Shown here in pieces: positions 9,395 through 61,793 of a stretch of 64,000 bases of DNA (position 1 is the stretch's first letter; each line of letters starts with the position of its first letter). Source of the stretch: an uncultured Gammaproteobacteria bacterium (GTDB lineage: Bacteria; Patescibacteriota; Patescibacteriia; SBBC01; CAIJZX01); contig CAYNGY010000002.1 in NCBI GenBank assembly GCA_964397195.1, positions 37,239 to 101,238 of the forward strand. Direction: 5' to 3'. A program made the position numbers and the translations under genes. The notes beneath the pieces are model-generated. The model was not told where the DNA came from, did not search any database, and worked only from the letters and a program-made list of their open reading frames with translations.

Positions 9395-11680
9395 ATGGCC
9401 GAAAAGCAACCTCGTCGCCGCGCTTCGGGCGCAGCGAATCCTGAACCGGAACATCCACGACGCCAACCAGCGCCACGCGAGGTGGTCCGCCCAGAAACGC
9501 GTCATGCGGTCCTGGTGGTAATTGTGCTGACCTTTGCGGCCGTTTTGTTGCTGTCGGTTTTTGGTTGGGCTGATACGTTCGGTGATCGGATTAGTGATGC
9601 GTTGGGGACTTTAGTTGGTTGGCAGCGATTCTTAGTGCCGTTCTATGGTTTGTGGCTCGGGATCGTTTTGCTCTTCCCCGAACGGTGGCACATTACCGGC
9701 CCGCGCTGGCTTGGATTCACCCTAACCTTATTGGGCTCGCTCGGGTTGATGCACATGGCGGTGCCGCTAGCCGTCGACGGACAACGTGCTATCGAGGGTG
9801 TTGGCGGCGGGTACATCGGATTTTTGGTCAGTCATGTTCCGCGATCCTCTTTGGGGCCGTGGGCCGGGGGTCTAGTCCTGGCGGCGATGCTGATTATCGG
9901 ATTGTTGATTTTGTTCAATGCCACCCTGCAGTCGCTCTATCGGCGCAGTAATTTGTTTAACGGGTTGACCATGTTGATTCGTCGTTTCCGCTGGCAACGC
10001 CGACTAGCGACGATTCAATCAGAAACAGTTCCGGCGCCGGAATTTCAGGCGACGGAAGTCCCGATCGCCCAATCCGAAACTGACGAGCCGAATGCCGGTG
10101 AACCAGCGGAGGCGGTCGACGAGCCGGACATGGTGCCGTTACCAGTTAAGAAAGAGCGTCGTCCAAAACGTCAGATCACGATCCCGATGGACCTCCTTGA
10201 TTTGGCTGACAGTAAGCCGACCAGCGGGAATATCGAACTGAATAAAGATCGGATTAAAAAGACGCTCGAGAACTTCGGCATCTCCGTCGAGATGGACGAG
10301 ATTCATGTCGGTCCGACGGTCACGCAGTATACACTCAAACCGGCGGATGGTGTGCGTCTGGCGCAGATTGCCTCACTGAAGAATGATATGGCGCTGGCCT
10401 TGGCGGCTCATCCGATTCGGATTGAAGCGCCTATCCCCGGGAAGTCGCTCGTCGGGATTGAAGTGCCGAACCAGTCAATTGCCCTCGTGACCTTGCGCGA
10501 CATCCTCGATACGGAAGAATTCCGTCGCCGGAAATCTGATCTCTCGTTCTCACTCGGGAAAGATGTTTCTGGTCAGCCGTGGGTGGCGAATTTGGAACTG
10601 ATGCCACACTTGCTGATCGCCGGTGCCACCGGGTCCGGGAAATCCGTTCAGATTAACGGCCTGATTATTTCGTTGCTGTATAGTAATTCGCCGGATGACC
10701 TCAAGCTGATCCTGGTTGACCCGAAGCGTGTCGAGTTATCACTCTACAATGACATTCCGCACCTGCTGACACCGGTGATTACTGAGACCACTAAAACGAT
10801 TAATGCCTTACGCTGGGTGGTGTCAGAAATGGATCGACGTTATCAAGTCCTCCAGAACGCACGGAAGCGCAACATTGCCGCCTATCGTCAAGATGTGAGC
10901 GATGATATGCCGTACATCTGTGTGGTCATTGATGAATTGGCGGACCTGATGTCGGTAGCCGCCAATGATGTTGAAGGGATGATTGTCCGTCTGGCCCAAA
11001 TGGCTCGGGCGGTCGGTATTCATTTGATCTTAGCGACGCAGCGGCCATCCGTTGATGTCATCACCGGATTGATTAAGGCCAACATTACCGCGCGCGTCGC
11101 CTTTAGTGTGGCCTCACAGATTGATTCGCGAACGATTCTCGATATGGCTGGCGCCGAATCGCTCCTGGGGAAAGGGGACATGCTCTTTATTTCGGCGGAA
11201 CTTTCGAAACCGAAACGGTTGCAAGGCGCGTATGTGTCCGAAGCGGAAGTCGAGCGGGTGACGAGCTACCTGAAGGCGCGGGGCAAACCTGATTACATGG
11301 CTGAAGTGACCGAAAAGCAACCGGGTGCGCCGGGACAGGGGATTGATGATCTCGGTGAAGACGAATTACTTCCGGATGCAAAAGAGGTGATTGTCCAGTC
11401 GGGTCGGGCATCAACGACGTTACTCCAGCGCCGTCTGCGCGTTGGGTATGCTCGGGCGGCACGGATTATGGATCTCTTAGAGAAAGAAGGCTTCATTGGG
11501 CCGGGTGAAGGGGCGAAGCCACGCGAAATCTACGGCCGTTCGACCGAGCACCCACCGTTTGCGCAAGACCCGCGCGATTTGCCGACGGATACCGGCGACG
11601 ATGTGCCGCTAGCGCCGGAAGAAGAAATTGAGGACGAGGAACCAGAAGATCCGGCGACCACCAACTCGAACCCCGCATGA
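9395..11680 (+). CDS. ftsK: DNA translocase FtsK/SpoIIIE
   Basis: N-terminal TM helices, proline/acidic linker, Walker A LIAGATGSGKSV, and C-terminal winged-helix gamma domain (TTLLQRRLRVGYARAARIMDLLEKEGFIGP). The start is chosen at ATG 9395, in frame with the longer track ORF 9341, because of the promoter just upstream. The start is uncertain. Confidence 0.85.
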   Translation: MAEKQPRRRASGAANPEPEHPRRQPAPREVVRPETRHAVLVVIVLTFAAVLLLSVFGWADTFGDRISDALGTLVGWQRFLVPFYGLWLGIVLLFPERWHITGPRWLGFTLTLLGSLGLMHMAVPLAVDGQRAIEGVGGGYIGFLVSHVPRSSLGPWAGGLVLAAMLIIGLLILFNATLQSLYRRSNLFNGLTMLIRRFRWQRRLATIQSETVPAPEFQATEVPIAQSETDEPNAGEPAEAVDEPDMVPLPVKKERRPKRQITIPMDLLDLADSKPTSGNIELNKDRIKKTLENFGISVEMDEIHVGPTVTQYTLKPADGVRLAQIASLKNDMALALAAHPIRIEAPIPGKSLVGIEVPNQSIALVTLRDILDTEEFRRRKSDLSFSLGKDVSGQPWVANLELMPHLLIAGATGSGKSVQINGLIISLLYSNSPDDLKLILVDPKRVELSLYNDIPHLLTPVITETTKTINALRWVVSEMDRRYQVLQNARKRNIAAYRQDVSDDMPYICVVIDELADLMSVAANDVEGMIVRLAQMARAVGIHLILATQRPSVDVITGLIKANITARVAFSVASQIDSRTILDMAGAESLLGKGDMLFISAELSKPKRLQGAYVSEAEVERVTSYLKARGKPDYMAEVTEKQPGAPGQGIDDLGEDELLPDAKEVIVQSGRASTTLLQRRLRVGYARAARIMDLLEKEGFIGPGEGAKPREIYGRSTEHPPFAQDPRDLPTDTGDDVPLAPEEEIEDEEPEDPATTNSNPA

Positions 11681-12348
11681 TGTTCACCAAGCGTCCGCTC
11701 GCGGGCCAGGAAACGCTCGGTGATCGGTTGCGGCAATTGCGTGAAGAGCGACGGGCGACCCTCGAAGAGGCGTCGAAGGCGGTGATTGTGCCGGCCAAAT
11801 ATCTTGATGCGCTTGAACGAAGCGCGTATACCGAACTGCCGGGCCTCGTCTACGCCCGGAACTTTGTGCGGCAATACGCGACGTGGTTGAGCTTGCCGGT
11901 GGAAACGGCGATGGAAAAGTTTGAGCAAGAATTTCAGGTTGTGCACGGTCGGCGTGTCGAATCACCGCGACTTGTGGCGCGAGCTAAAACCGAGTTTCCG
12001 TGGTATCTGCGTCATGGACGCTTCCTGATCGCTTCGGGGATTATCTTGATCGTCCTCACCTATCTTGTGATTCAGGCGGTACGCTTATTGCGTCCGCCGT
12101 TTATGGAGGTACTTCAGCCATCGACCGATATTTCCATTTCGGAAAACTCGATCGTGGTCAGCGGCCGTACTCAGCCCGGCGTTGAGGTCCGGATTAACAA
12201 CCAACAGACGGATGTCGCGGCGGATGGGACGTTCGTCGAAACGGTTGACCTGCAAACCGGGTTGAATACCCTAAAGATAACCGGACAGCGAAAAATTAGT
12301 AAGCCGGCCGTCGTGGAACGACGGGTGTTGGTGGAGGCGAAGGAATAA
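11677..12348 (+). CDS. RodZ-like protein (N-terminal XRE-type HTH, one TM helix, C-terminal beta domain)
   Basis: HTH segment LGDRLRQLREERRATLEEASKAVIVPAKYLDALERSAY resembles the RodZ N-terminus. A single TM helix (FLIASGIILIVLTYLVIQAV) follows. ATGA overlap with the ftsK stop. Confidence 0.5.
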   Translation: MMFTKRPLAGQETLGDRLRQLREERRATLEEASKAVIVPAKYLDALERSAYTELPGLVYARNFVRQYATWLSLPVETAMEKFEQEFQVVHGRRVESPRLVARAKTEFPWYLRHGRFLIASGIILIVLTYLVIQAVRLLRPPFMEVLQPSTDISISENSIVVSGRTQPGVEVRINNQQTDVAADGTFVETVDLQTGLNTLKITGQRKISKPAVVERRVLVEAKE

Positions 12349-12559
12349 CCACGCGGGGGAAGTGGCTGGACAGCCAACCGTTTACTGTATCATGTGAAAC
12401 TGAAAAAACGCTGAAAAATCCCGTTTCTTCGCTACGTTGAGCGGTTTTTTTGTAAAGCAAAAACCCCAGACCAGATGCCACCATCGCTTGCGCGACGATG
12501 GAATTGGTCCAGGGTATTGCCTGTATCTTTTACGATCCCCGGGGGGAGGGACGGTGCGG

Positions 12560-13078
12560 TTACTTGGTTCTGCTCTGGGCGAGGGGCCCAGGAAGGACGA
12601 CGTTCTCGAAGACGATGGATCGGCCGATGACCTTGCCGACAGGGGCACCTGGTCGACGGCAGTAGACGAGATCGTAGGAGTCGTCTGCGTGTCCGTTGAT
12701 GAAGATGCCGAAGCGGTCGCCGGCGTAGTTCATGTACGGCCTGGCCATCGGGTAGAGGACTTCATCGCGAATCGGCGTCTCGTCCATCAGGCGGACGTTC
12801 GGCCAGCGCGCGGCGTACTTCTTCAGGAAGTAGTCGTCGCCCGGCGAGCCGTAGGACGGCACGGTGCCGTCGATGAACGGGGTGATGGTCGCCGGCAGGG
12901 TGCCGTGCTTGAGCTGGTACTCGGTGATCTCCAGTGCGAGCTCGGTGACCGCCAGATTCTGCTGGCTTACCTCGAACTGGTGACGCAGGTTGGCGACCTC
13001 GATGTTCTGACTGCGGAACTGGGTTCCGATCCAGATCAGACCGAGGACCGCGAGAATGTAGAGAGCGACGATCTTCAT
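12560..13078 (-). CDS. hypothetical signal-anchored or secreted protein (172 aa)
   Basis: N-terminal hydrophobic segment MKIVALYILAVLGLIWIG. SD GGAGGA lies 3-4 nt upstream of the ATG. The overlapping plus-strand ORF 12437-13135 is D/E/R/G-rich antisense noise. Confidence 0.6.
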   Translation of the reverse strand: MKIVALYILAVLGLIWIGTQFRSQNIEVANLRHQFEVSQQNLAVTELALEITEYQLKHGTLPATITPFIDGTVPSYGSPGDDYFLKKYAARWPNVRLMDETPIRDEVLYPMARPYMNYAGDRFGIFINGHADDSYDLVYCRRPGAPVGKVIGRSIVFENVVLPGPLAQSRTK

Positions 13079-13179
13079 GATTCCTCCGTACGGGCGGAAG
13101 TGGTCAGGCTTGGTGCGTCTAGCGCGTCGGGGTGACGCGGTAGATCACCGGGGCGATGATGCCGAGGGTGGAGGCGCGC

Positions 13180-13365
13180 CTAGTCCTTCATGAAGTTGTA
13201 CTCCAGGTCGGACGGCGGTTCACCGTACTTCTTCTTCATCGCGGCGATATGCGTTTCACAGGCCATCGCACCGCCAGCGATCCCGACCGCCCGACCTTCG
13301 CCATTCCAGCGCGGGTCGAGCTTGCTGGTGACCCACCAGCTGCCTTCGCGAATTCCGAAGTCCAT
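13180..13365 (-). CDS. hypothetical small protein (61 aa)
   Basis: ORF preceded by SD AGGAGGA 8 nt upstream. High GC3 like its neighbours. Confidence 0.45.
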   Translation of the reverse strand: MDFGIREGSWWVTSKLDPRWNGEGRAVGIAGGAMACETHIAAMKKKYGEPPSDLEYNFMKD

Positions 13366-13393
13366 GTCTGTGTCCTCCTGATGGCGGTCGATT

Positions 13394-14095
13394 CTACTTC
13401 TGGCGGTAGACGAACCAGACCTCGTCCTTCCCGTTGATGGTGAAGACCGCCATCGTGACGTTGTCGATCTGGGTGCCGTGCTCGATGAGCCAGTGGTCCA
13501 GGTCGCCGGCGTTCTGGAAGACCTTCGCTCTGTAGCCTGGCTCCTCGCCCGGCTTGGGTGGAGGCTGGTAGCCCTGTTCCAGGCAAGGCACGATCACGGT
13601 TCGGGCCAGCGTCGCCGGGTCATCGGACTTGGAATTCGTCCGGATGGTAGCCGGTGGCGCGTAGCGGACGCGGTTCACGGGCACGTCGCCGCCGAACTGG
13701 TACTCCTGCAGGCGCTCCCATGATTCTGCGACCGCGCTCAGGGCCTTCCAGGTCGACGTGTAGCGAGTGCCGATGTTGGAAGACTCCTTGGCGTTCAGAC
13801 CCTTCCAGACGACAGCCAGACACGGGTTGGTGGTGTCACTGCCAGCGGCCGGAAACACGAACAGGTTGTAGCGCAGGTCTCTGGTCCCCAGGGCACCGCG
13901 GTAAGGAGCGGGCTGGAGGGTAGCATACCCGTACAGGCGGAAGGCCCGCCGGTGACCGAGCGCGTTGACGACGGTGACGTTGAAGCCCTCGATTCGGGAC
14001 TTGTAGTACCCGTCGATGGCGCCCTGGCTCGGCGTGGTGATGACACCGAGTGCCATGACCACGATCAGCAGGGTGATGCCGATGCTTGATTTCAT
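13394..14095 (-). CDS. hypothetical secreted protein (233 aa) with N-terminal signal peptide
   Basis: Signal-peptide-like N-terminus MKSSIGITLLIVVMALGVITTPSQGA. SD context GGAGGAATCATGAA is identical to that of the 12560-13078 gene. Its start overlaps the stop of the upstream receiver gene (ATGA). Confidence 0.65.
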   Translation of the reverse strand: MKSSIGITLLIVVMALGVITTPSQGAIDGYYKSRIEGFNVTVVNALGHRRAFRLYGYATLQPAPYRGALGTRDLRYNLFVFPAAGSDTTNPCLAVVWKGLNAKESSNIGTRYTSTWKALSAVAESWERLQEYQFGGDVPVNRVRYAPPATIRTNSKSDDPATLARTVIVPCLEQGYQPPPKPGEEPGYRAKVFQNAGDLDHWLIEHGTQIDNVTMAVFTINGKDEVWFVYRQK

Positions 14096-14481
14096 GATTC
14101 CTCCGGGTTGAGGAGCTCCGTCACCTGCGCGATCAGTTCGCGCGGGCTGAAGGGCTTCGCCATGAAGCGGTGGGCGCCGGCCGCGCAGTACGATCGTCCG
14201 TCAACGTCCGAAGGCTCGGGCGTGGTCAGGACGATAACCTTGATATGCCGGAACGCGGCCCAGGCGACCGTTGCGGTGAGTAGCTCGGGTCCGTTGCCGC
14301 GGTTGAGACGCGGGTCGATGATGATGACGTCGGGCGACGTGCGCTTCAGCTCGATCAGCGGGTTACTTGACCGGCTGATGATGACGACTTCGAAGCCTTG
14401 GTGGCGACTCAGTCGGTAGTCGAGCAGATCCGCATGCTTCGGATCATCGTCGATGACGGTGATACGTCGTTTGTTAGTCAT
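14092..14481 (-). CDS. stand-alone response-regulator receiver (CheY-like REC domain)
   Basis: Starting at MTNKRRITVIDDD (ATG at 14481, SD GGAGGG) it has all REC hallmarks: the DDD acid pocket, phospho-acceptor Asp in VIIIDPRL, Thr in VIVLTT and Lys in AKPF. There is no output domain. The track ORF extends to 14571, but the upstream extension lacks an SD. Confidence 0.75.
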   Translation of the reverse strand: MTNKRRITVIDDDPKHADLLDYRLSRHQGFEVVIISRSSNPLIELKRTSPDVIIIDPRLNRGNGPELLTATVAWAAFRHIKVIVLTTPEPSDVDGRSYCAAGAHRFMAKPFSPRELIAQVTELLNPEES

Positions 14482-14911
14482 GCGCCCTCCGTGGCACGTA
14501 GGTGGTAGGAAAGACGAGGCGGCGTCCGGTGTAGTAGAGCAGTGCGACCATGGCGAGCGCCATGATGACACCGAAGAACTGATCGGGTGCCCAACTGCTT
14601 TGCCACTGGTTCCAGGTGCGGATGTTCACGAGCATGACCATCGCGAACCAGAAACAGCCGGTGTGAATGCCGTAGTCGCGTCGGTACATGATGCGAATCA
14701 TCAGCACCGACGTGAGGACGGCGAGAGTCCACGCGCCGTAGATCATGAAGATGCTCGGCGCGCCTTCCACCAGCTCATTGTAGCCCTCGGCGCCGTCGGG
14801 GAACCATTCCCAGAACTGGTTTTGCCAGTTCCAGAGAGCGGCGCCGATGACGGCGAGAGTGAAGGCGGCGAAAAGACGAGCGATGCCGAACGCATACTGC
14901 TTGAGAGTCAC
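14474..14911 (-). CDS. hypothetical integral membrane protein (about 4 TM, 145 aa), GTG start
   Basis: Four hydrophobic helices, W/F-rich. SD GGAGGAG 4 nt upstream of the GTG start. Its 3' end overlaps the receiver gene start by 8 nt, so they are co-transcribed. Confidence 0.6.
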   Translation of the reverse strand: MTLKQYAFGIARLFAAFTLAVIGAALWNWQNQFWEWFPDGAEGYNELVEGAPSIFMIYGAWTLAVLTSVLMIRIMYRRDYGIHTGCFWFAMVMLVNIRTWNQWQSSWAPDQFFGVIMALAMVALLYYTGRRLVFPTTYVPRRAHD

Positions 14912-15094
14912 GGGACTCCTCCGTTTTTTATGACCGGGCGAGGGAGATCACCGGTCGTTGTCAATGGTCGACGCGACCCTCGCTTGAACTCACCAGTCTA
15001 ATGAGCAGAAAAGACTGATGAGTCCAAGTGAAGATCCGGCGGCGGACTCGCGTGTTACTGCGAGTCCGCCGTCAGAGTGCGGGTTGAATATCTT

Positions 15095-15211
15095 CTACCA
15101 CCGACTAGGGTCTTTGACCTTCGTCCAGTCGATGTTCTTCGGACGCGTTCGCCAGACGCCGATAGCGTAGATGGCGAGCATAGCCACCGCGAGAATGTCC
15201 GACCACTTCAT
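15095..15211 (-). CDS. possible small membrane protein (38 aa: MKWSDILAVAMLAIYAIGVWRTRPKNIDWTKVKDPSRW)
   Basis: Short ORF not in the supplied track. Found by eye, it has one hydrophobic helix and a GGAAAGG SD-like sequence about 9 nt upstream. A strong 11-bp hairpin lies downstream at 15041-15070. Confidence 0.3.
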   Translation of the reverse strand: MKWSDILAVAMLAIYAIGVWRTRPKNIDWTKVKDPSRW

Positions 15212-15245
15212 GGGTTGGCCTTTCCGCGGCAAGGGGGGGGTGGTG

Positions 15246-15401
15246 TTACGCGGCCGCTTGGCCGAGTTCCTTCTCGAGGGTAGCGATCCGATAGCGCAGT
15301 TTCTCGCGCTCCCGTTCGCCGCCTTCGCCTTCCCGATCGTTCTCGTTCAACTCCGCGAGGAGTCGGTCGAGATCGGCCTGGATCTCTGTGCGCGTGCGCA
15401 T
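15246..15401 (-). CDS. hypothetical small charged coiled-coil protein (51 aa)
   Basis: Internal ATG of track ORF 15246-15674 has strong SD GAGGAG 6 nt upstream. The product is MRTRTEIQADLDRLLAELNENDREGEGGEREREKLRYRIATLEKELGQAAA. It starts 12 nt after the stop of the upstream membrane-protein gene. Confidence 0.4.
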   Translation of the reverse strand: MRTRTEIQADLDRLLAELNENDREGEGGEREREKLRYRIATLEKELGQAAA

Positions 15402-15412
15402 GTCGTTCTCCT

Positions 15413-15808
15413 CTAGAGTTGCGGCCAGCGGAAGAAACAGTTCAGGAGCAACAGGATGCCGATGATCTTGCCGATCAGCGTGATGACGTAGCGCGCGATC
15501 TCGGTTTCGTGGCCGAGGTCGTACTCGAACGTCCGATGATCGCCCATTTCCTTGTTCAGGGCGGTCGCGATGCGCTTCAGCGACGAGATGGTGTTGCCGC
15601 AGTGCGTGGCCATACTCAGACCGAGCACTGCCGCCACGACGCCGGCCATCCAGCCGAGCGTGTAGTTGTGCCACACGTGGTTGGTGACCCAGGCGACGGG
15701 AACCATCAGGATCGCGATCATGAAGAAGATCGTGAAGATGATGAGTTCGAGGCGGAAGACTTCGTACTGCTTGAGCAGTGAGCGGATGTAGATCTCATCC
15801 TGATCCAT
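15413..15808 (-). CDS. hypothetical membrane protein (about 131 aa from MDQDEIYIRSLL...)
   Basis: Start chosen at the ATG with SD GGAG 6 nt upstream. Two to three TM helices (LELIIFTIFFMIAILMVPVAWV; GWMAGVVAAVLGLSMA; ITLIGKIIGILLLL). Confidence 0.55.
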   Translation of the reverse strand: MDQDEIYIRSLLKQYEVFRLELIIFTIFFMIAILMVPVAWVTNHVWHNYTLGWMAGVVAAVLGLSMATHCGNTISSLKRIATALNKEMGDHRTFEYDLGHETEIARYVITLIGKIIGILLLLNCFFRWPQL

Positions 15809-15893
15809 TTGCACTCCTCGGCGGCTTGAGCCGCGAATGGGTAGTGGCGTGGACAGCGAGTCCGTTTCGAAGATATTCGTGAGAGTTAAGGTG

Positions 15894-15979
15894 CGACTCT
15901 CGTTTGAAGGTTTCAATGGTTGAAACTCTCAAACGAGAGTCCCAGTACCGGCTGTCCTTGTCGGACTTCCGGTACTGGG
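15894..15979 (-). repeat. tandem perfect inverted repeats (nested 13-bp + 7-bp hairpin, then an 11-bp hairpin) between two co-oriented island genes
   Basis: First hairpin: GACTCTCGTTTGA (15894-15906) pairs with TCAAACGAGAGTC (15929-15941), enclosing the inner stem GTTTCAA/TTGAAAC. Second hairpin: CCCAGTACCGG (15941-15951) pairs with CCGGTACTGGG (15969-15979). Neither is followed by a U-tract. Confidence 0.7.
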
Positions 15980-15995
15980 ATGATCTCATCTACAT

Positions 15996-16451
15996 CTAGA
16001 TGAACTCGTACTTCGGGCCGTTGGCGAAGATGGCGCGCGTGTACCAGCGACGACCCTGTTGGTCGAAGTACTGCAGGTCGACACGCTCGACGCCCTCGGA
16101 ACGGTCCGGCAGGTAGCTGAAGTTCAGCTTACCTCGGCAGGCCTTGCCGCCGGTGTCCTGGTGGCACTCGATACGCTGGCCGCTGTCGGGATCGTTGAAC
16201 TCGAGGTAGTCCTTCGAGAACATGCTCATGACCTCGAAGATGCTCCGCGGGAGCTGACCGTTGTTGTTGACTCGGAAGTTCTCGACCTTGTCAGCCATCC
16301 GGTTCATGGTGTTGACCAGGGACTCGTGCCGATGCCCGGCCTGGCTCCGTACGAGCTGCGTCTGAGTCTCCTTGAGCCGACGCAGAAGGTACGTGCTGTA
16401 CATGGCGGCGGCAACACCGAAGATAGCGAGGATGAACACGGAAATGCTCAT
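15996..16451 (-). CDS. hypothetical N-terminally anchored protein (about 151 aa)
   Basis: Start at the second ATG (MSISVFILAIFGVAAAMYSTYLL) with SD GGGAGA. One TM helix followed by a hydrophilic domain. Confidence 0.55.
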   Translation of the reverse strand: MSISVFILAIFGVAAAMYSTYLLRRLKETQTQLVRSQAGHRHESLVNTMNRMADKVENFRVNNNGQLPRSIFEVMSMFSKDYLEFNDPDSGQRIECHQDTGGKACRGKLNFSYLPDRSEGVERVDLQYFDQQGRRWYTRAIFANGPKYEFI

Positions 16452-16662
16452 GAAGTCTCCCATGCTTGACCGGATCTATCCGGGGCGGGTTGGAGTGGCG
16501 AAGACGACGAGTTTATTGTAGATGAGAGTAGAAAGAACAAACTCTATCTCTCGCATAACGTGACCACGTGGTGATCAGGTTGTGCGAGAGGCCCGGAACC
16601 ACTCCTTCCGATCTTGTCGGGAGTTTGGTTCTGGGCCGAACGAAGGTGCTCTCGCGGAATGC

Positions 16663-16911
16663 CTAGTAGGTGCGCGTCTCGGCGCGATTGGTCTCGCGGT
16701 GGAGCGAGACGGCCAGCCAGAGTACGCCGGTTCCGATCACGGTGACGAACAGCGCGGCCGGGAAGAGGCGGGGGTCGGCACTGTAGTCCTTGATGGCCGA
16801 GTAGACGCCGTAGAGGCCGAGCGCCGCGATCGCCGTCCCGAAAACGGACAGGACCGCGGACAGCATGTGACGACCGAACTTCTGGTCAGGCGTGAGGCGG
16901 AGCGTCGACAT
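16663..16911 (-). CDS. hypothetical small membrane protein (82 aa, 2 TM)
   Basis: Two hydrophobic helices. SD AGGTAGGA upstream. The overlapping plus-strand ORF 16582-17064 is D/E/R/G-rich antisense noise. Confidence 0.5.
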   Translation of the reverse strand: MSTLRLTPDQKFGRHMLSAVLSVFGTAIAALGLYGVYSAIKDYSADPRLFPAALFVTVIGTGVLWLAVSLHRETNRAETRTY

Positions 16912-17136
16912 GGATTCCTACCTTTCGGTGAGGGGCGGGTGATACGAAAAAACGCGTTGCGGCGACAAATCCCGGAGCAGGTTTATCACAACAACGCGTT
17001 TTTCACATATCGTGTCCGACGTCTGCTCACGTGGCACGAAGCGGGTATATTTAAAGAACAGTAGATTATACGCTTGGCGGCGAAAAATGTCAAGAGTAAG
17101 GGCGTGGCGACGGATCGTATTTGGCTAATTATAGCC

Positions 17137-17159
17137 AAAAAAACCCAGCCGAAGCTGGG
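17137..17159 (-). terminator. rho-independent terminator for the RNase III-like gene (minus strand)
   Basis: On the minus strand: CCCAGC-ttcg-GCTGGG followed by TTTTTTT (plus-strand 17137-17159 reads AAAAAAACCCAGCcgaaGCTGGG). Confidence 0.7.
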
Positions 17160-17184
17160 GGTAGGGTGGGGTTCTTGGGCCCTG

Positions 17185-17982
17185 CTACTTCCGAATTTCG
17201 GCGAGCAGGCGCGTCAGCGCGAATTCTCGAGCGCGAGACGGATTGGGGGACTTGCCGCGAGTGAGGCATCCGTTCAGCTTGGCCGTGCAGTGGTAGACGG
17301 CGTTCCTCGGACCACCGCGTCGACGATTCTGGATCCGTGGTACCGGGTAGCCGTGTTGACGGGCGTAGATGACGAGTGCGGCCCACGGATTGAGGCGGCG
17401 GCCGTTGACGGTCGTAGGTGTGACCTCCAGCAGATCCTCCGGTCGGTGGTCGTTCCCTTGGTCAGTTGTGACCTCATGGCCGTTCGTGACCGGGATGGTC
17501 GTTGGCAGGGGATGTCTCAGCACGTACGGCAGGTACCGTTCGATGACGTAGGCCTCAGCCGCAGCGACTCCTTGGTGGCGGTCGATGATGGCGAGGACGC
17601 ACTCGAAGGTTGTGCCGAGAGTGTGGTCAGCTTTCCGTGCGTTGCGGCGCGATCCCGTCAGTTGGCGAGCGAGATTCGCGACGCCGATGTGGCCGAGATA
17701 GGTCGCCATGCACCCGTTCGTCGTGACATGGTCAACCCACGTCGGGTCGAGACCATGCGCCGATCCGTTCTTATTGAACCAACGTCGAAGCGCGAGCTCA
17801 ACGATCGAATCGCCGATGAACGAGAGCGCTTTCCGAGTGTCTTCGTAGGGCAGTGGGTGACGTTCGCCCGACTGGCCGGTGATGATGATCCGGATCCAGT
17901 CAGTCGACAGGTCGGGTAGCCCAAGCTGCGTCCTGATGACGCCGAAGAGCGCATTTCGCGTCGATCCATTTGCGGTTCCCAA
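17185..17982 (-). CDS. RNase III-like protein (catalytic-domain-like region, about 60-aa insert, C-terminal dsRBD), TTG start
   Basis: KALSFIGDSIVELALRRWF matches the RNase III signature ERLEFLGDAxLEL. HTLGTTFECVLAIIDRHQG matches ADxFEAxxGAIYLD. The C-terminal segment NPWAALVIYARQHGYPVPRIQNRRRGGPRNAVYHCTAKLNGCLTRGKSPNPSRAREFALTRLLAEI is dsRBD-like. SD AAGGAG lies 7 nt upstream of the TTG start. Confidence 0.6.
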   Translation of the reverse strand: MGTANGSTRNALFGVIRTQLGLPDLSTDWIRIIITGQSGERHPLPYEDTRKALSFIGDSIVELALRRWFNKNGSAHGLDPTWVDHVTTNGCMATYLGHIGVANLARQLTGSRRNARKADHTLGTTFECVLAIIDRHQGVAAAEAYVIERYLPYVLRHPLPTTIPVTNGHEVTTDQGNDHRPEDLLEVTPTTVNGRRLNPWAALVIYARQHGYPVPRIQNRRRGGPRNAVYHCTAKLNGCLTRGKSPNPSRAREFALTRLLAEIRK

Positions 17983-18164
17983 GGTGCACTCCTTGTGTGT
18001 CGGTCCGTGCTACGGGAGTAGAACGGTGCTCCTGCCTCAAGCCTAGGCTCGTTTCGCGGTATCGTCAAGGATACTTTCGGTATGTGGAAAACTGGTATTT
18101 ACGGTTCGGTTATTATTCCCCGGCTCGCGGGCCGGGGCAGGCTAAACCTTAGAAAATCAGGGTC

Positions 18165-18260: not shown

Positions 18261-19364
18261 ATGGCCAAAGGCCACAAGGCGTCCGCTTCTTCACCGGCGG
18301 GCAAGGAAAAAAATGATGCCGCGTTAGCCGCGATCGAGCGGATTCGCGAGCGCTTTGGTGAGGGATCGATCATGAAGTTCAGTGAAGCCCGGGCGACTGA
18401 TGTCGATGTCGTCAGTACGGGTTGCTTGTCGTTAGATCTGGCGTTGGGTGTTGGTGGTGTGCCACGCGGACGGATTATTGAAATCTTTGGACCGGAAGCG
18501 TCGGGAAAAACAACACTCGCACAGCATATCGTAGCCGAGGTACAGAAGGCGGGTGGGACGGCGGCCTTCGTTGACGCCGAACATGCGCTTGATCCAAGCT
18601 ATGCCAAGAAAATTGGGGTGAATGTCGATGATCTTTTGATCTCACAGCCAGATTCCGGCGAGCAGGCTCTGGAGATTGTCGAAACCTTGGTGCGATCGAA
18701 CGCCGTGGACGTGGTGGTTGTTGACTCGGTGGCGGCGTTAACGCCAAAAGCGGAAATTGAAGGTGAGATGGGCGACTCACACATGGGTCTGCAAGCGCGG
18801 CTGATGTCGCAGGCGTTACGGAAGCTGACGGCCATTGTGTCCAAAACACGAACGATCATTATCTTCATCAACCAGACGCGCATGAAGATCGGTGTCTTCT
18901 TCGGAAATCCGGAAACCACGACCGGTGGGACGGCCTTGAAGTTCTACTGTTCGGTCCGAATTGAAGTTCGCCGCATTGGTCAGCTGAAACAGGGTGACAA
19001 GATTGTCGGGAACCGGACGAAAGCAAAAGTGGTGAAGAATAAAGTCGCCGCGCCGTTCCGCCAAGCCGAATTCGATATCATGTACAATCAAGGGATCTCG
19101 CTGGTCGGTGACGTGCTTGATACGGGATTGCTCTACGGTGTTTTGCAGAAGTCCGGAAACACCGTCAGCTTTGGAGAAACGAAGTTTGGTGTTGGCCGTG
19201 AGGCGTGCAAGCAGTATTTGCAAGACAACGCCAAGGTGATTAACGAGATTCGAGAGGCGGTCTTGAGGGTAGCTAAGGAGCGCCAGGCCGAAGACGACCT
19301 GTCCGGCCGTGCGCCGAGCGTGCCCGAACCGGAGGCGGCGGCTGAGGCACCGGTGACGGAATAG
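18261..19364 (+). CDS. recA: recombinase RecA
   Basis: Walker [10 protein letters not shown] and a classic RecA core ([23 protein letters not shown]). Confidence 0.96.
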
Positions 19365-35882: not shown

Positions 35883-36929
35883 TTAGCGCAAGCCCATTTT
35901 CTGCTGGACTTCGAGGAGTGTTTCTTCCGCGACGACAGATGCACGCTTGGCGCCATCAATCATGATTGCCTCAATATCCTGCGGCTTCTGCGCGAGCATG
36001 GCGCGGCGTTCACGGAACGGCGCGAAGTGCGCGGCAATAATATCGGCGAGGGCCGCCTTAAACTCCGAGAATTTTAATTCGCCTGACTCGGCGATGCCTG
36101 CCCAGTGCTTGGTCTCGGCCGGTTTCCCGAGGGCGAGGAGAATCGTGAACAGGTTCCGAACGCCGTGAAATTGCTTGGCCAGATTTGGATCACCTTGCCA
36201 GTCGACCTCAGTGGCCTTGATGCCGGTGTTGGCGGCGTTCCACGCTTCGCGAATAACGCGTGGCTCCCCGGACGAGACGGCTTTTTGTAGTTTGGCGGTG
36301 ATGACCTCCGGTTCATCGGTCAGGAGAATTCCGCTTGGACCCGACTTCGACATTTTTTCCTCGGGGTTGGTGAGGGACATGATTCGCTTGCCGCTGACTA
36401 GCAGAGGCTGTGGTTCGGGGAATGTTTGGTCGAACGTTCGATTGAACTTCTTGGCGAGGTCTCGTGCGAGTTCAACATGTTGCACCTGATCTTCGCCGAC
36501 CGGGACGCGGTCTGTTTTGTAGGCGAGAATGTCCGCCGCCATCAGGATCGGGTAGTTCATGATCCCGGCGTTCTGAAAATCCTTGTGGGACTCAGACTTT
36601 TCTTTGAACTGGACCATGCGTTGAAGTTCGCCGACGGGGGTGATGGTGTTGAGGAGCCACATCAGTTGACTGTGGGCTGGGACCATTGATTGGACGAACA
36701 GGACCGCTTTTTGCGGATCGAGCCCGGCGGCAAGGTAATCAAGGATGACGCCGCGGACCTGTTCTTGCAGTTGGGCGGCGACGTATGGAGTAGTAATTGC
36801 ATGGAGGTCGGCGACCATGAAAAACGCCTCGTGCTTTTCTTGAAGCTTAATCCATTGGTGCACGGCACCGAGATAATTCCCGAGGTGAAGCTGTCCGGAA
36901 GGGCGGATACCCGAAAGAATGCGTGACAT
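35883..36929 (-). CDS. trpS: tryptophanyl-tRNA synthetase
   Basis: Starts MSRILSGIRPSGQLHLGNYLGAV (HIGH-class motif) and has KMSKSGPSG. The length of about 348 aa is typical. The track ORF start is trimmed to this ATG. Confidence 0.9.
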   Translation of the reverse strand: MSRILSGIRPSGQLHLGNYLGAVHQWIKLQEKHEAFFMVADLHAITTPYVAAQLQEQVRGVILDYLAAGLDPQKAVLFVQSMVPAHSQLMWLLNTITPVGELQRMVQFKEKSESHKDFQNAGIMNYPILMAADILAYKTDRVPVGEDQVQHVELARDLAKKFNRTFDQTFPEPQPLLVSGKRIMSLTNPEEKMSKSGPSGILLTDEPEVITAKLQKAVSSGEPRVIREAWNAANTGIKATEVDWQGDPNLAKQFHGVRNLFTILLALGKPAETKHWAGIAESGELKFSEFKAALADIIAAHFAPFRERRAMLAQKPQDIEAIMIDGAKRASVVAEETLLEVQQKMGLR

Positions 36930-37131
36930 AATGGGCCTAGTGTAGCAGATTCTCAGGTTTTGGCGAGGGGCGTGTCCTTGACGGTGTTGGAGTGGCAGGA
37001 TAGAACTTGCTTCGTCTCTTCCTATATCTGTCTCGGACTTTGGGAGGGCATCATCGACTCGGTGTTTTCTATATGAAAACGCGCCCCGGGATATCCAGTC
37101 CCAGAGCGCGGGGTTGTCGGTGCGATGCGTA

Positions 37132-38073
37132 CTAGGCGCCGAGGCCGCGATCACCGATGATCGACTTCAGGTGCTCAATCATGGCGACGCCGCGACGTTC
37201 CTGCGCCGGGTTCGAGACGCGAACTTTCGTCCGCGGCGGACCGAGCAGGGCGCGGGTGATCTCGGCGAGCTTCCGGCCGTGGATCGGCTGGGGCTCGGCG
37301 TGCTTGACCTCTTGCTCGAGCAGTTGCAGACCGGCCTCCAGCTCGATGGCCCGACCGCGCGGCGCGTCGATGGTCTCGTCGACGGAGACGAAGGTCACAT
37401 AGTCGGCGGTCGATTCCCAGGTGGCTACGAACTCGATCAGGCGGGTGAGTGGCCAGGGCGAGCCCGGTGTCCAGACGATCGTCTCATGCTCGTTCGCGAA
37501 CTCGATCTGATGGACACTGATCACGTTGACGTGCCAGGGATAGTGTCCGTCCTTGTTGAGGATCGCCTCCCAGTTCTGGTACTCGGGATCGTATCGATAG
37601 AGGATTCCCGGCTGGCCGTCGCCGAAGCGCGGCATGCGGATTGCGAAGGGGATCGCCGCGCTGAAGTACTGCGGGTGTGGCTTGAACCCAAGCTGACCCG
37701 AGTTCAGTATCGGCGGATCTTGGTGTGCGTGAAGCTCGCCGTCGGGCGTGATGGCGAGCCAACCCTGACCGAACTGGTAGCGGGTCTGCCAGGTCAGGAA
37801 GGACCAGAGCGTGTACAAAACTGCCGCGGACAGCACGGCGATAACCGTCCAGCCTTCGCGGGTGTACGCCTGCCAGTCGCGCTGTGTGTCCGAGAGCGCG
37901 AGGGACATGAAGACGAACAGGGCGATGCCGAAGAGCAGGCAGATAACCCCGTACATCTCCTTCTTCCAGCGCCGGGTGTTCTGCTCAGCTGCGGTCACAT
38001 ACTTCCGATCGAAGTGGTGATCTTGAAGCTGACGTGCCGCCTGGCGACAGGCCCGACAGTTTTCTTGTGACAT
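37132..38073 (-). CDS. hypothetical membrane protein (about 313 aa) with very high GC3, probably horizontally acquired
   Basis: Start at MSQENCRACRQAARQ with SD GGAGGA 5 nt upstream. Two TM helices (VICLLFGIALFVFMSLAL; WTVIAVLSAAVLYTLWSFL) and a W/Y-rich C-terminal domain. The overlapping plus-strand ORF 37114-38070 is D/R/G-rich antisense noise. Confidence 0.55.
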   Translation of the reverse strand: MSQENCRACRQAARQLQDHHFDRKYVTAAEQNTRRWKKEMYGVICLLFGIALFVFMSLALSDTQRDWQAYTREGWTVIAVLSAAVLYTLWSFLTWQTRYQFGQGWLAITPDGELHAHQDPPILNSGQLGFKPHPQYFSAAIPFAIRMPRFGDGQPGILYRYDPEYQNWEAILNKDGHYPWHVNVISVHQIEFANEHETIVWTPGSPWPLTRLIEFVATWESTADYVTFVSVDETIDAPRGRAIELEAGLQLLEQEVKHAEPQPIHGRKLAEITRALLGPPRTKVRVSNPAQERRGVAMIEHLKSIIGDRGLGA

Positions 38074-38571
38074 GGCATCCTCCAGAACCGAATCAGCCTC
38101 GATCCCGCTCCGCTCCAAATCGTCGGAGTCGCGGATACTGATCCGGCGGATGTGGGTCGATCGACCCAATGTGAAGCTACGACCGTCGGACAACGACGGG
38201 ATGGACTTGCTTTATCAGAAAAGAGGGGATTTGTCAATCCCCGATAGCGCAATTTGGGCTAAGATGCGGCCAAAGGAAAAGTACACATTGGCCCATTCAA
38301 TACTGTAACGTTCGGGAGCGAGAAGTGTAACGTTGGGTGTGGGTGATGTGGGGCCGATGTCCTGCCGGACGGGCATTCCTTTTCTCCTTGATGAGAAAAG
38401 GAACCGAAAAGAATCAAGCGGCCGATAAACTCGGGCCGCAAATTGGCGGCCCTCAAACAGTATCGGCCGCGCAACGGTTTCATCGCTTGGAAGACGGACG
38501 GCCAAAACCAACCACCCCTCCCGTGTCATCCCCGCGTAGTCGGGGAAAGGAGGGGCTGGTGGGAAAACGCG
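38074..38571. other. roughly 500-nt non-coding region dense in nested inverted repeats (possible structured RNA, or regulatory/terminator region)
   Basis: Examples: GGCCGATA-aactc-GGGCCGC-aaattg-GCGGCCC-tcaaacag-TATCGGCC (about 38432-38485). CCCCTCC...CCCCG-cgtagt-CGGGG...GGAGGGG (about 38515-38560) directly downstream of the rnj stop. TTTTCTC-cttgat-GAGAAAA. GGGGATT-tgtca-AATCCCC. Confidence 0.4.
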
Positions 38572-40338
38572 TTACGCTTCGAGGATGACCGGGATGATCA
38601 TCGGCTGGCGTTGGGTTTTCTTGAAAATGAATTTTTCCATCTCGTGGCGCAGTTGATCGCGGAGGTCGCGGTCTTGCGGTTTCAGTTTCGGTTGCCGATC
38701 CTTGAGCGCTTTTTTGGCGACGGCGACCATTTCGCCGATGAACCGTCCTTGTTCTTTCATGTGGGTCAAACCGCGGGAGACAATATCGACTTTGCCGATT
38801 CTCCCGGTGCGGGTGTTGAGCTGGGCGACGACGATGACCATGCCATCACCGGCCAGTTGTTTCCGATCGCGGAGGACGAGGGCATTAACATCACCGATGC
38901 CGAGCCCGTCGACAAAGACGGGGTCAATCGGGTGGCGCGTATTCGTGACGTAGCCTTGGCCATGGTGGAATTCAACCACTTGCCCATCATCAGCGAGGAG
39001 AATTTGCTGGTCTGTGTACCCGATGGACTTAGCATTCTTCTTATTTTCCATCAGGTGCGAGTAGCTCCCTTCAATCGGCATGATGTATTTTGCTCGGACC
39101 ATCTTCATGAAGTCGATCAGGTCGGCTTGCTTAGCGTGGCCGCCGGCGTGAATATCGAGCATCTTATAGTCGATGATTTCCGCGCCTTCGCGGTAGAGCC
39201 CATCTTTCAAGCGCTCAACATTTCGTTCATTGCCCGGCACGATTGAGGATGAGAAGACGATGAGATCGTCTTTTTCAATCCGTACGTTCTTGTCCTCATG
39301 GTTGGCGATGCGCATCAGGGCGGCGTTATCTTCGCCTTGGGCGCCGGTGCAGATGATAATGTATTTATCATTCGGCATCCGTTCGATTTCTTCCCAGGGG
39401 AGAATCGTATTCGGTTTAACGCGAATGTAGCCGAGTTCGCGGCCGATCTCGATATTCGTTTTGAGCGAATAGCCCATCAGGTAGACCTTGCGGTTGTACT
39501 GTTCGGCCATGGTCAGGACTTGCTGCATTCGCGAGATCAGCGAGGAGAACATGCCGAAGATGATCCGACCCTTGGTTTGGGTAAACATCGTCTGGATGTT
39601 CTTTTCAATTTCGCCTTCCGAGAGTTGATGTCCCGGTTGGTTCGAACTGGTCGAGTCGAGCATCAGACACATCACGTTTTGTGAGCCGAGGGCTTTAATA
39701 AACTCGAGGTCGGTGCGGTTCGTAACATGGGCACGCGTGTCGAGTTTGAAGTCGCCGGTATGGACAACTTTTCCTTCGGGCGTTTCGATGACTACGCCGA
39801 ATGAACCGGGGATGTTGTGCGAGAGCGAGAAGAACTGCAGTCGGAAATTTCCGATCCGAATCCGGTCGCGATTTTTGACCTTATTCAGTCGAAACTTTGC
39901 GTCCGGGGCGATTTCTTCGGCGCGCTTTTTGATCATGGCGCAGGTCAGGTCCGACGAAAAGATCGGCGGGTTCCCGAGTCGGGGAATCCAGTGTGGCACG
40001 CCACCGGTGTGGTCCATGTGACCATGGGTAATGACGACGCCTTTGATCTGACGCTCTTTCCCGCGGAGGAAGCCGAGGTCGGGGATGATGTAATCAACGC
40101 CCGGCATGTCGTCCTCAGGGAACTGTAACCCAATATCAATAATCAGGTAGTCTTGCGCATATTTCAGCACATAGCAGTTTCGTCCACCGGTCTCTTCGTT
40201 CCCACCGACGGGGATAATTTGGAGGACGTTCTCTTTCCCGAGCGGCGGGCGTTCGCCCTGGGTCGGTTTCGGTTTCGGACGACGCGTGTAGCGCGGTCCA
40301 TCTGGTCGGCGCATACGCGCCTTAGGCCGTTTGGCCAT
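38572..40338 (-). CDS. rnj: ribonuclease J (metallo-beta-lactamase / beta-CASP RNase)
   Basis: VITHGHMDHTGGVP (HxHxDH), the beta-CASP region, and a length of 588 aa with a basic N-terminal extension. Confidence 0.9.
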   Translation of the reverse strand: MAKRPKARMRRPDGPRYTRRPKPKPTQGERPPLGKENVLQIIPVGGNEETGGRNCYVLKYAQDYLIIDIGLQFPEDDMPGVDYIIPDLGFLRGKERQIKGVVITHGHMDHTGGVPHWIPRLGNPPIFSSDLTCAMIKKRAEEIAPDAKFRLNKVKNRDRIRIGNFRLQFFSLSHNIPGSFGVVIETPEGKVVHTGDFKLDTRAHVTNRTDLEFIKALGSQNVMCLMLDSTSSNQPGHQLSEGEIEKNIQTMFTQTKGRIIFGMFSSLISRMQQVLTMAEQYNRKVYLMGYSLKTNIEIGRELGYIRVKPNTILPWEEIERMPNDKYIIICTGAQGEDNAALMRIANHEDKNVRIEKDDLIVFSSSIVPGNERNVERLKDGLYREGAEIIDYKMLDIHAGGHAKQADLIDFMKMVRAKYIMPIEGSYSHLMENKKNAKSIGYTDQQILLADDGQVVEFHHGQGYVTNTRHPIDPVFVDGLGIGDVNALVLRDRKQLAGDGMVIVVAQLNTRTGRIGKVDIVSRGLTHMKEQGRFIGEMVAVAKKALKDRQPKLKPQDRDLRDQLRHEMEKFIFKKTQRQPMIIPVILEA

Positions 40339-60958: not shown

Positions 60959-61225
60959 CCTGCGCCCCCCAAATTAGTCTCTAGAACAATCGTCAGAAAA
61001 GCCTCATACCACTTAGGTAGATAGGGCACCTACCTCATGTAGGTGTGGGATAAAGCAACCTACTATCATAAACAACGAAACTGAATTTTTGCTGAACCCC
61101 GCACCGTACGGTGCGGGGTGAACTAAAACTTCAGCTACCCTTGTGCAAAAAAAGACACCCGGGGCCAATGGCTCCCGGGCGTGGTACGTGGCGAGTGACG
61201 TTTCCGTGGGCGTCACGTGACGGTG

Positions 61226-61618
61226 CTATACCGGGGCGATCCGGTGGTGCTCGTACAGCAGGTCAGCGGTGCGCGTCGGGTCCGGGTGGCGAATAACCCA
61301 GATGGGCGTGCATTCCGCGTCAGGTTGGTGTCTCCACTCCGGCGGCATCGCGGCGAAGGCGAAGTACCGTTCCGTGGCTTGGCATTCGACGAGTCGCCAG
61401 ACGTGGTGTCCGCGTTCCTTGTCCATCCGCAGGATGGGCAGGACCTTACCGAGTCGGTCAGGCCGGTTCTTTGATGAACCTTTCCGAATCGGAGCGGGGT
61501 TGAGGATGATGGTGAGGTACGGTGACTTGGTCAGCTCCACGAGCAGGGAATAGAACTTCCCACTCCGCGGCAGCTTTTTTGGCACCACTTTTTCTTTGGT
61601 GCCGTTCTTGGTTGGCAT
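61226..61618 (-). CDS. hypothetical protein (about 130 aa)
   Basis: Protein-like composition on the minus strand, while the overlapping plus-strand ORFs are R-rich noise. Start chosen at MPTKNG (SD GGTAGGA), though the track ORF extends to 61696. A 12-bp palindrome CGTCACGTGACG lies just past its stop. Confidence 0.4.
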   Translation of the reverse strand: MPTKNGTKEKVVPKKLPRSGKFYSLLVELTKSPYLTIILNPAPIRKGSSKNRPDRLGKVLPILRMDKERGHHVWRLVECQATERYFAFAAMPPEWRHQPDAECTPIWVIRHPDPTRTADLLYEHHRIAPV

Positions 61619-61793
61619 TGATCCTACCCTCATCCGATGAGGGGGTAAGGTGTCCCGGGGGCGAATCCCGGGCGAGGACATGGCCATCGGCAGCACGGAC
61701 TGGCGATGGAATTGCTAGGGTACGCCTCTCTTGCGGTGGGTGTCAAGGCGGACAGAGTGGCGGTTTTTCCCATTTCTGGTAGGGTATAGACGC

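Follow-up and report, generated by a model that had tools for sequence, protein, structure and literature searches.

Gene X is a minus-strand gene in a stretch of 64,000 nucleotides (nt) of contig CAYNGY010000002.1, which was analysed as a whole and is called the window throughout. It lies between rnj, its upstream neighbour, and trpS, and a spacer of 498 nt (38074-38571) separates its start from rnj (Table 1). A first interpretation of this locus, made from the letters alone and referred to below as the sequence-only reading, described an isolated gene next to a densely structured non-coding region, which could be a structured small RNA (sRNA), a long 5' untranslated region (5'UTR) or the scar of the insertion that had brought the gene. 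Comparison of the window with three loci carrying remote homologues of gene X, designated L161, L162 and L163, argues for a long structured 5'UTR, situated at 38203-38071 and not at the hairpins which that interpretation had cited. This leader, which contains the hairpins P1, P2 and P3 and follows a promoter-like motif, is predicted to pair with part of the Shine-Dalgarno (SD) sequence of gene X. The RNase J of the window is 66-68% identical to that of metagenome-assembled genomes of Candidatus Kerfeldbacteria/Patescibacteria, no genome closer by this protein was found in the genome and metagenome contig collections, and by this measure the host, an uncultured groundwater-type bacterium, is a Kerfeldbacteria-like member of the Patescibacteria.

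A predicted structured leader between a promoter-like motif and the start codon

Across about 125 aligned bases, nt identity of the leader between the four loci is 79-87%. It is far better conserved than the coding DNA of gene X (44-47% nt identity) and the third codon positions of rnj and trpS (41-53%), and is also more conserved than the second codon positions of rnj between the window and L163 (85-86%). An upstream coding extension of gene X, to a TTG at 38193, was rejected because L163 and L162 do not preserve the upstream reading frame with respect to the start codon and L161 interrupts it with a stop codon. A covariance model of the leader built from the four sequences (R1) scores 110-151 bits on these loci. 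It gave no further match in the window, searched with filters off, or among 160 rnj loci. A 16-base leader pattern occurs in 40 viral contigs, but none of them scored with R1, so that these pattern matches are attributed to chance. Searches of the leader against plasmid and phage DNA gave no match.

Known RNA families were considered as well. A scan of the whole window against Rfam 15 at gathering thresholds returned two tRNAs only, and a permissive scan (E at most 10) of 36850-38700 gave best E values of 2.7-9.9, far under the gathering scores, for freshwater-2, plastid group II D5, mir-598, flavi_FSE and BTH_s1, all regarded as noise. No family reached threshold in that region, so that no Rfam family explains it, a possibility which the sequence-only reading had raised. 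Domain 5 of a group II intron was rejected on its score (16.4 bits, E = 2.7, where the gathering score is 61) and on the absence of a reverse transcriptase (RT) open reading frame (ORF); on inspection, a pairing of the D5 type competes with P3, and L162 does not preserve it. A T-box or other tRNA-Trp link to trpS was likewise discarded, as there is no Rfam T-box match, no such motifs were seen by inspection, and the leader precedes gene X. Nothing relevant was found in the literature on structured RNAs of the candidate phyla radiation (CPR). Judged from its sequence, the leader is a new motif, represented at four loci, of a known kind, namely an SD-masking cis-regulatory leader.

Consensus folding of the four loci with RNAalifold recovers P1 and P3, and the minimum free energy (MFE) folds of the single sequences show the order P1-P2-P3 at all four. 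Covariation was counted for 35 pairs of P1 and P3 on the leader alignment. Standard pairs fill 96.4% of the cells, compared with 28-44% when the partners are slid by one to three columns, and both sides have changed in 11 pairs, compared with 4.7 +/- 1.5 in shuffles, none of 500 of which reaches 11. The middle helix of P3, 11 bp long, occurs in three sequence versions, with nine of its 11 pairs changed on both sides, and P2 also covaries, GGGUC/GACCC being replaced by GGCCC/GGGCC in L161 together with an inserted inner stem. Twelve cells hold G-U pairs, one of these pairs being invariant, which favours the gene-sense RNA strand as the one that folds.

The start codon of gene X is preceded, five bases away, by GGAGGA at 38083-38078, the SD named in the sequence-only reading. 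At the base of P3, ACAUCC (38153-38148) lies opposite GGAUG(C) (38080-38075), which forms the 3' half of the SD GGAGGAUG. In the window, L163 and L162 the predicted pairing probability of this half stays at or above about 0.85 between 10 and 37 °C; the final three of its bases are looser in L161, with about 0.57-0.70 at 37 °C. At 45 °C the SD pairing in the window and L163 still amounts to about 0.8 or more, the unpaired probability of GGAUG being at most 0.20, while L162 and L161 have less regular temperature profiles with no clear melting transition. An RNA thermometer was rejected on these grounds, the SD pairing in the window and L163 failing to melt between 10 and 45 °C. Repeats of AUCC and of GGAU/GGAG permit alternative pairings, none of which covaries. 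In the manner of riboswitch-like elements, the leader combines a conserved structure with compensatory changes and a predicted occlusion of the SD.

The putative promoter of gene X reads ATTGACA, 14 variable bases, TGATAAAG, and ends 6 nt upstream of the leader, the ATG following 2 nt past P3. Its elements ATTGAC and T(G/T)nTA(A/G)(A/G)G align at all four loci, and the bases between them differ. TTGACA-17-TGnTAAAG has a single exact match in the window, one which a generic sigma-70 scan missed. At the other end of the gene, the terminator core CCGGGACTnnATATCCCGGGGCGC and its T-run are common to the window and L163, and a hairpin with a T-run also follows the homologue in L162. Since terminators bound it on both sides, gene X can be viewed as an autonomous unit.

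Gene X, the rnj-trpS junction and the rest of the spacer

Gene X combines a G+C content at third codon positions (GC3) of 0.81-0.82, against 0.52-0.68 in the flanking genes, with two hydrophobic membrane spans by hydropathy (residues 38-64 and 75-95), in agreement with its earlier description as a high-GC3 membrane-protein gene. Its first and second codon positions are ordinary and host-like (GC1 = 0.63, GC2 = 0.44). The shared codon style with a high-GC3 island of seven ORFs at 12.5-18 kb, which the sequence-only reading had pointed out, is borne out by relative synonymous codon usage, the correlation being 0.87 with the island and 0.65 with pooled host genes. This style is in part a strand effect, because gene X and the island ORFs are all on the minus strand, in a window whose GC skew is steadily positive, and because the minus-strand housekeeping genes rnj and trpS tilt towards island usage in the same way (0.75-0.80).

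The protein begins with an N-terminal CxxC, which is kept in three of the four family proteins; two transmembrane (TM) helices are followed by a C-terminal domain of about 215 amino acids (aa), made up of a beta-rich region and then a helical C-terminal region. Basic residues flank each TM helix, so that both termini are predicted to be cytoplasmic. The best-conserved motif in the family alignment is ET(I/V)(D/A)AP(R/L)G..E..AGL ... P.P(L/I).G(R/L). Gene X gave nothing above threshold in Pfam, NCBIfam, PHROGs or PADLOC, none of the four family proteins did so in Pfam, and a profile search of the PDB found no match. One family member has a weak SLATT_1 match (E = 0.071), which is a lead only. 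A known anti-phage defence system was rejected for want of a PADLOC match; a type I toxin, below about 60 aa, does not fit a protein of 313 aa; and a target of a diversity-generating retroelement was dismissed, as no part of gene X is repeated in the window and no RT occurs among the flanking genes examined.

A full HMMER search of 1.84 billion protein representatives yielded three remote homologues at 26-31% identity, P0002 of L161 (298 aa, E = 4e-12), P0003 of L162 (250 aa, E = 2e-9) and P0004 of L163 (309 aa, E = 9e-7). In a comparison that covered both levels, gene X shares 28-32% in aa and 44-47% in nt with them. Pairwise identity among the four proteins is 26-38%, and by this divergence gene X is a fast-evolving, rapidly diverging gene. 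All four proteins are singletons at 90% clustering. A word-indexed search with the single sequence recovered the query alone, the corresponding profile search recovered only the gene X protein (P0001) and P0003, exact-sequence lookup of P0001 gave no contig, and metagenome contigs, viral contigs, plasmids and phages contained no relatives.

The sequence-only reading placed gene X alone between trpS and rnj and suggested an import. The neighbours are as described, but gene X is no lone recent import, as two of its three homologues lie directly 3' of rnj. In L163 the order is rnj (68.5% identical), 321 nt, P0004, 107 nt and trpS (73%); in L161 the C-terminus of rnj (79.5% identical) is followed after 323 nt by P0002, on a contig that does not extend to trpS. 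The homologue in L162 occupies a different context, between a major facilitator superfamily transporter gene and a DUF1003 gene. GC3 is raised in three of the four loci, namely the window, L163 (0.74 against 0.58-0.59) and L161 (0.82 against 0.64), and not in L162 (0.60); the arrangement thus recurs in L163 and L161, and it does so with a GC3 that is not normal there either, which weakens the idea of a gene brought by insertion with the hairpins as its scar. Measured as a genomic islet, gene X is atypical in GC3 and ordinary in GC1 and GC2, and related genomes do not generally lack it at this site, since L163 and L161 have it directly after rnj and L002 is without it. The third codon positions of rnj and trpS are near saturation between the window and these relatives, and, given the syntenic homologues, gene X has been at the junction for long or has been re-installed there repeatedly, and did not arrive in a recent single event.

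The junction is variable in a wider sample. Of 160 rnj loci retrieved, 55 are followed by trpS in the same orientation, at a median distance of 260 bp; the corresponding distance in the window is 1642 bp. In L002, the closest relative from the genome collection with sequence 3' of rnj, 288 bp separate the two genes and no gene lies between them. The direct adjacency on which the sequence-only reading had wished to be informed is therefore seen in these loci, and not in L163, where a homologue of gene X intervenes. Other lineages hold small genes at the junction that are unrelated to gene X by phmmer (E at most 10), which makes it a variable spot. When the last 200 residues of rnj are compared, L163 is nearest to L002 (80%), yet L002 is without gene X, so that gain or loss of gene X has occurred. 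Judged by this absence and by the other context in L162, gain, loss or movement of the cassette is real. The similarity rankings of the leader and of gene X do not track that of rnj, and together with the L162 context and the absence in L002 this mismatch makes us lean toward some horizontal exchange. The high GC3 may reflect gene-specific selection or bias, or repeated replacement from a GC-richer allele pool via the conserved flanks.

In L162, at 890-905, ATT stands in place of the usual start codon of the homologue. The protein as called begins 8 nt downstream of it in a different frame and is without the CxxC and the first TM helix; the leader there is intact.

For the whole spacer the folding z-score is -5.98 (minus strand) and -4.26 (plus strand), none of 100 shuffles being as good, and the eight other gaps of at least 150 nt between long ORFs in the window range from z = +0.4 to -4.3. 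At least five inverted repeats are present, as the sequence-only reading had stated, including the nested pair and the CCCCTCC/GGAGGGG repeat, and the spacer ORFs have no Pfam match, in line with its finding of no convincing ORF. The hairpins that it cited as a structured element fared less well. One of them begins, with a 14-bp stem, 9 nt past the rnj stop codon and has its arms repeated after rnj in L161 (CCACC..CCCCTCC / GGAGGGGTGG); a G+C-rich hairpin followed by a U-tract after the stop codon has the form of an intrinsic terminator, and this hairpin, by its sequence and place, is the putative native terminator of rnj. It was missing from the terminator scan list because its loop exceeds 8 nt. 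The other, the nested hairpin, is present in both the MFE and the centroid folds, has no counterpart in the spacers of L161 or L163 and has no further copy in the window.

The spacers of the relatives are shorter (271-323 nt) and are without the nested hairpin, the 11-bp hairpin and the direct repeat, none of which recurs at another place in the window. Outside the leader the spacer has z = -5.1, because the perfect window-specific hairpins lie there, and the 11-bp hairpin is also the source of the weak Rfam freshwater-2 match (E = 4.8). These two hairpins may act as extra terminator-like, lineage-specific insulators of the cassette against read-through from rnj. With Rho-independent terminators, the hairpins at 38562-38508 (followed by UUUU), 38470-38418 (followed by a U-rich tail) and 37110-37080 (followed by UUUU) share G+C-rich stems; the first two, here called terminator-like, depart from typical ones by long or nested loops and by short U-tracts, and the scan did not call them. 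A REP or MITE family (repetitive extragenic palindromes or miniature inverted-repeat transposable elements) was rejected for the hairpins, self-BLAST of 36930-38571 against the 64-kb window having found no repeat longer than 21 nt.

Proposed regulation by the leader and competing accounts

We consider it probable, if only modestly so, that the X locus is a self-contained promoter-leader-gene-terminator cassette between rnj and trpS and that its leader RNA represses translation. The basis for this is conservation, covariation, SD pairing in silico and synteny. Transcription of gene X would start near 38203, and in the default fold the pairing of ACAUCC in P3 with GGAUG of the SD would half bury the ribosome-binding site, so that translation of gene X would be held down. 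Expression would then need P3 to be opened or cut, whether by a bound factor, a ligand or an endonuclease such as RNase III, and P1 would probably protect the 5' end. The upstream hairpins would remain outside the leader RNA, the first of them ending rnj and the next two insulating the cassette from rnj read-through. Three segments are invariant, namely AUCCGCG, GGAUCGAG including the bulge on its 3' side, and the anti-SD stem. In contrast to the freely covarying connector helix they look like a recognition surface for a factor, although this is an impression.

In their architecture, SD-sequestering leaders such as riboswitch expression platforms and the ROSE and fourU thermometers resemble the leader of gene X, in that an upstream anti-SD sequence pairs with the SD within a conserved structure showing compensatory changes; unlike them, this leader has no Rfam match and no evident aptamer-like junction or ligand. 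RNA thermometers differ further in that their hairpins are short and labile, whereas P3 is a long rod and SD pairing in the window and L163 hardly melts from 10 to 45 °C.

Several points weigh against a repressing leader. The independent evidence is small, because only four examples exist and P3 is largely common to the window and L163, and the test of the structure relied on the very four sequences from which it had been derived. The thermodynamic z of the leader alone is modest (-1.1 to -2.5). The lower, anti-SD stem is invariant and hence has no covariation support of its own, and it drops from the centroid fold in the window and L162. Both the transcription start and the co-transcription of the leader with gene X are assumed, and no ligand pocket, alternative conformer or trans factor was identified for the leader. 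Finally, the leader may serve something other than translation of gene X, because in L162 it is intact in front of an ATT start and a truncated protein.

Patescibacteria (CPR) have tiny genomes and, to our knowledge, few described regulators, and for both reasons any conserved RNA of the cis-regulatory kind in this group would be informative. The contrast between a leader kept at 79-87% with compensatory pairing and a protein that has drifted to 26-38% is unusual. If the leader were a true switch, it would offer a handle on the control of an opaque family of membrane-anchored proteins, and R1 is a seed that can be used over full metagenome collections. If it were merely a stable hairpin that masks the SD, the result would be an ordinary annotation of terminators, promoter, leader and orphan gene.

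It is a doubtful extension of the repressing-leader reading that the leader belongs to a new class of ligand-sensing or protein-binding regulatory RNA, so far seen in Kerfeldbacteria-like Patescibacteria. Together with the terminator it would then form the constant handle of an exchangeable cassette, in which the coding part, gene X (high GC3, 26-38% between alleles), is repeatedly replaced or diversifies under conflict-type selection and the ends act as both regulatory element and homology arms. Integron cassettes with their attC sites, and allele replacement at pilin and capsule loci, offer a likeness, the X cassette having conserved ends around an interior of 44-47% nt identity and being, like other variable-gene cassettes, found in two contexts and missing from one close relative. 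Unlike integron cassettes, it has no integrase, attC-type site or array, and its conserved element is found on the 5' side of the gene, where it is predicted to pair with the SD. Only four alleles of gene X are known.

Among the competing accounts, the first holds that the leader is mainly a processing and stability element for RNase III or RNase J, in which cleavage of P3, or obstruction of 5' exonucleolysis by P1, sets the half-life of the mRNA. Bacterial RNase III cuts long duplexes in a size class of about 22-29 bp, the leaders of phage lambda N and of the T7 early mRNAs being processed by it, and in Bacillus 5' stabiliser hairpins block RNase J1. P3 would provide a near-continuous duplex of about 22-29 bp, an interrupted helix of some two to three turns that overlaps the ribosome-binding site as in RNase III-processed leaders, and P1 would begin 4 nt from the 5' end deduced from the promoter motif, as in the Bacillus stabilisers, which likewise place a stem-loop within a few nt of the end. 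These likenesses are general ones. The small shift of SD pairing between 10 and 45 °C in the window and L163 also argues against passive melting. On the other hand, the bulge CGAG and AUCCGCG / GGAUCGAG are conserved in sequence beyond the requirements of a generic duplex substrate. This account, unlikely as the main function, overlaps with SD masking rather than excluding it.

Next comes a recent horizontal insertion, by which a foreign high-GC gene would have landed between rnj and trpS with the hairpin-rich spacer as its scar or baggage. Its composition and island-like codon usage, the short rnj-trpS gaps in the 55 loci and in L002, the unrelated inserts at the same junction in other lineages, the different context in L162 and the departure of the leader ranking from that of rnj would all fit. 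Against this stands the order rnj-X-trpS in L163 and rnj-X in L161, even though rnj there is only 65-80% identical to that of the window; because the order is shared at near-saturated synonymous sites, any insertion must be old or recurrent and not recent. GC1 and GC2 are also host-like, the window yielded neither a mobility gene nor a significant flanking repeat or repeated element, and no donor-like match turned up in the plasmid, phage, viral and metagenome collections. A recent insertion is accordingly improbable.

Still another account treats the conserved 170 nt as DNA, that is, as an operator or recombination site at the end of a mobile or exchangeable cassette, with the RNA structure a by-product of palindromic protein-binding sites. 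The conservation of both cassette ends (promoter with leader, and terminator) around a highly divergent interior and the occurrence of the cassette in two genomic contexts would agree with such a site, and the almost perfectly duplicated 3' end of rnj in L163, L003 and L060, described below, hints at site-specific recombination at this junction. Yet the middle helix stays paired while its sequence is replaced, in three versions, which fits single-strand folding and not recognition of a fixed duplex, and the 12 G-U cells, with the invariant pair, would be A-C mismatches on the opposite strand. The element is placed exactly between the promoter motif and the SD and start codon, it pairs with the SD, and no recombinase gene occurs among the flanking genes examined, all of which makes a DNA-level site very unlikely.

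Least credible of all is a single structured sRNA that spans the 498-nt spacer independently of gene X: the strong folding of the whole spacer and of its part outside the leader (z = -6.0 and -5.1) would suit it, whereas conservation is confined to the gene-proximal 170 nt, nothing else but the arms of the rnj terminator recurs in L161, L163 or L162, the spacers of the relatives are 271-323 nt long, the promoter motif splits the region with no terminator between leader and gene X, and no Rfam family matches.

Further features of the locus and the window

Table 1. Coordinates of the features described in the text, in the numbering of the window unless another locus is named.
Feature	Position	Strand	Description
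Structured 5' leader through start codon	38071-38203	minus	133 nt; P1, P2, P3
P1 hairpin	38199-38183	minus	RNAalifold
P2 hairpin	38167-38154	minus	Single-sequence folds; may have been counted as a palindrome in the sequence-only reading
P3 interrupted hairpin	38153-38075	minus	About 29 bp; RNAalifold
Gene X (ORF)	37132-38073	minus	313 aa; ATG at 38073-38071
Promoter-like motif of gene X	38209-38238	minus	-35 TTGACA 38237-38232, 17-nt spacer, extended -10 TGATAAAGC 38217-38209
Intrinsic terminator of gene X	37070-37110 (hairpin 37110-37080)	minus	12-bp stem, then TTTTCATATA; terminator scan
rnj (RNase J), upstream neighbour	38572-40338	minus	Pfam RNase_J_b_CASP, RNase_J_C, Lactamase_B
trpS	35883-36929 (to 36947 with -10 motif)	minus	Pfam tRNA-synt_1b
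Inverted repeat	38508-38521 / 38549-38562		Arms of the rnj terminator-like hairpin
Nested inverted repeat	38418-38427 / 38461-38470, inner 38433-38442 / 38443-38452		Window-specific
Inverted repeat	38376-38386 / 38393-38403		Window-specific
Inverted repeat	38225-38231 / 38236-38242		
Palindrome	38153-38168		Overlaps P2 of the leader
rnj terminator-like hairpin	38504-38562	minus	14-nt arms CCACCAGCCCCUCC / GGAGGGGUGGUUGG, inner CCCCG-ACUACG-CGGGG, UUUU at 38507-38504
Nested hairpin, 10 + 7 bp (GGCCGATA/GGGCCGC)	38470-38418, tail to 38404	minus	T-rich tail TTGATTCTTTTCGG; terminator-like
11-bp hairpin	38376-38403	minus	UUCCUUUUCUC-AUCAAG-GAGAAAAGGAA; contains AAGGAG
Direct repeat TGTAACGTT(C/G)GG	38304-38337		Two copies 22 nt apart
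rnj 3'-end duplicates	L163 1842-1958 (after hairpin); L003 11741-11815; L060 about 131 nt past rnj stop codon		

The direct repeat TGTAACGTT(C/G)GG does not occur in the spacers of the relatives. An ORF of 53 codons at 38215-38374 on the minus strand has its AUG 8 nt after the AAGGAG of the 11-bp hairpin and extends across the gene X promoter motif. It is not conserved in the relatives, the ORFs that enclose it have no Pfam match, and it is unlikely to be a gene. A supposed copy of the rnj 3' end at 38500-38480 was rejected, since a match at 13 of 21 positions (p about 0.13) is not significant. Elsewhere, in three of 153 rnj loci, a second copy of the final 21 nt of rnj, stop codon included, lies 33-131 nt further on. 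All 12 differences between these copies are at third codon positions, so that both copies encode the same C-terminal peptide, and the arrangement resembles a duplication of the attL/attR type or the product of recombination with a diverged allele.

Before trpS, an extended -10-like motif TGCTACACT occupies 36947-36939, 9 nt before the ATG at 36929, and TGATACACT is found at the same place in L163 and L002, the motif TGnTACACT being common to all three. The spacing of motif and ATG suggests that the trpS mRNA is nearly leaderless. In L002, the rnj-trpS spacer without gene X contains, at about 3183-3285, a MITE-like element of about 100 nt with 14-nt inverted repeats TTGTCATTTCGAGC ... GCTCGAGATGACAA. 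At the same junction in L040 (Magasanikbacteria), and identically in L111 and L112, lies an insert of 1081 bp (L040 6348-7432) whose GC content is 0.61 against 0.51 for the locus; it carries an opposite-strand ORF of 266 aa with a GC3 of 0.79, unrelated to gene X by phmmer.

The high-GC3 island of the window (12500-18000, minus strand) lies between a rodZ-like helix-turn-helix gene (11677-12348) and recA (18261-19364). Its seven ORFs have GC3 values of 0.73-0.86 and five of them are without a Pfam match; they include a stand-alone response-regulator receiver at 14092-14571 and, at 17185-17982, an ORF with a sub-threshold RNase III domain (E = 9e-5). A further minus-strand ORF at 61226-61696 (GC3 0.75, no Pfam match; feature span 60959-61696) is followed by a spacer of 267 nt that folds with z = -4.3 and in which two terminator-like hairpins were recognised by inspection.

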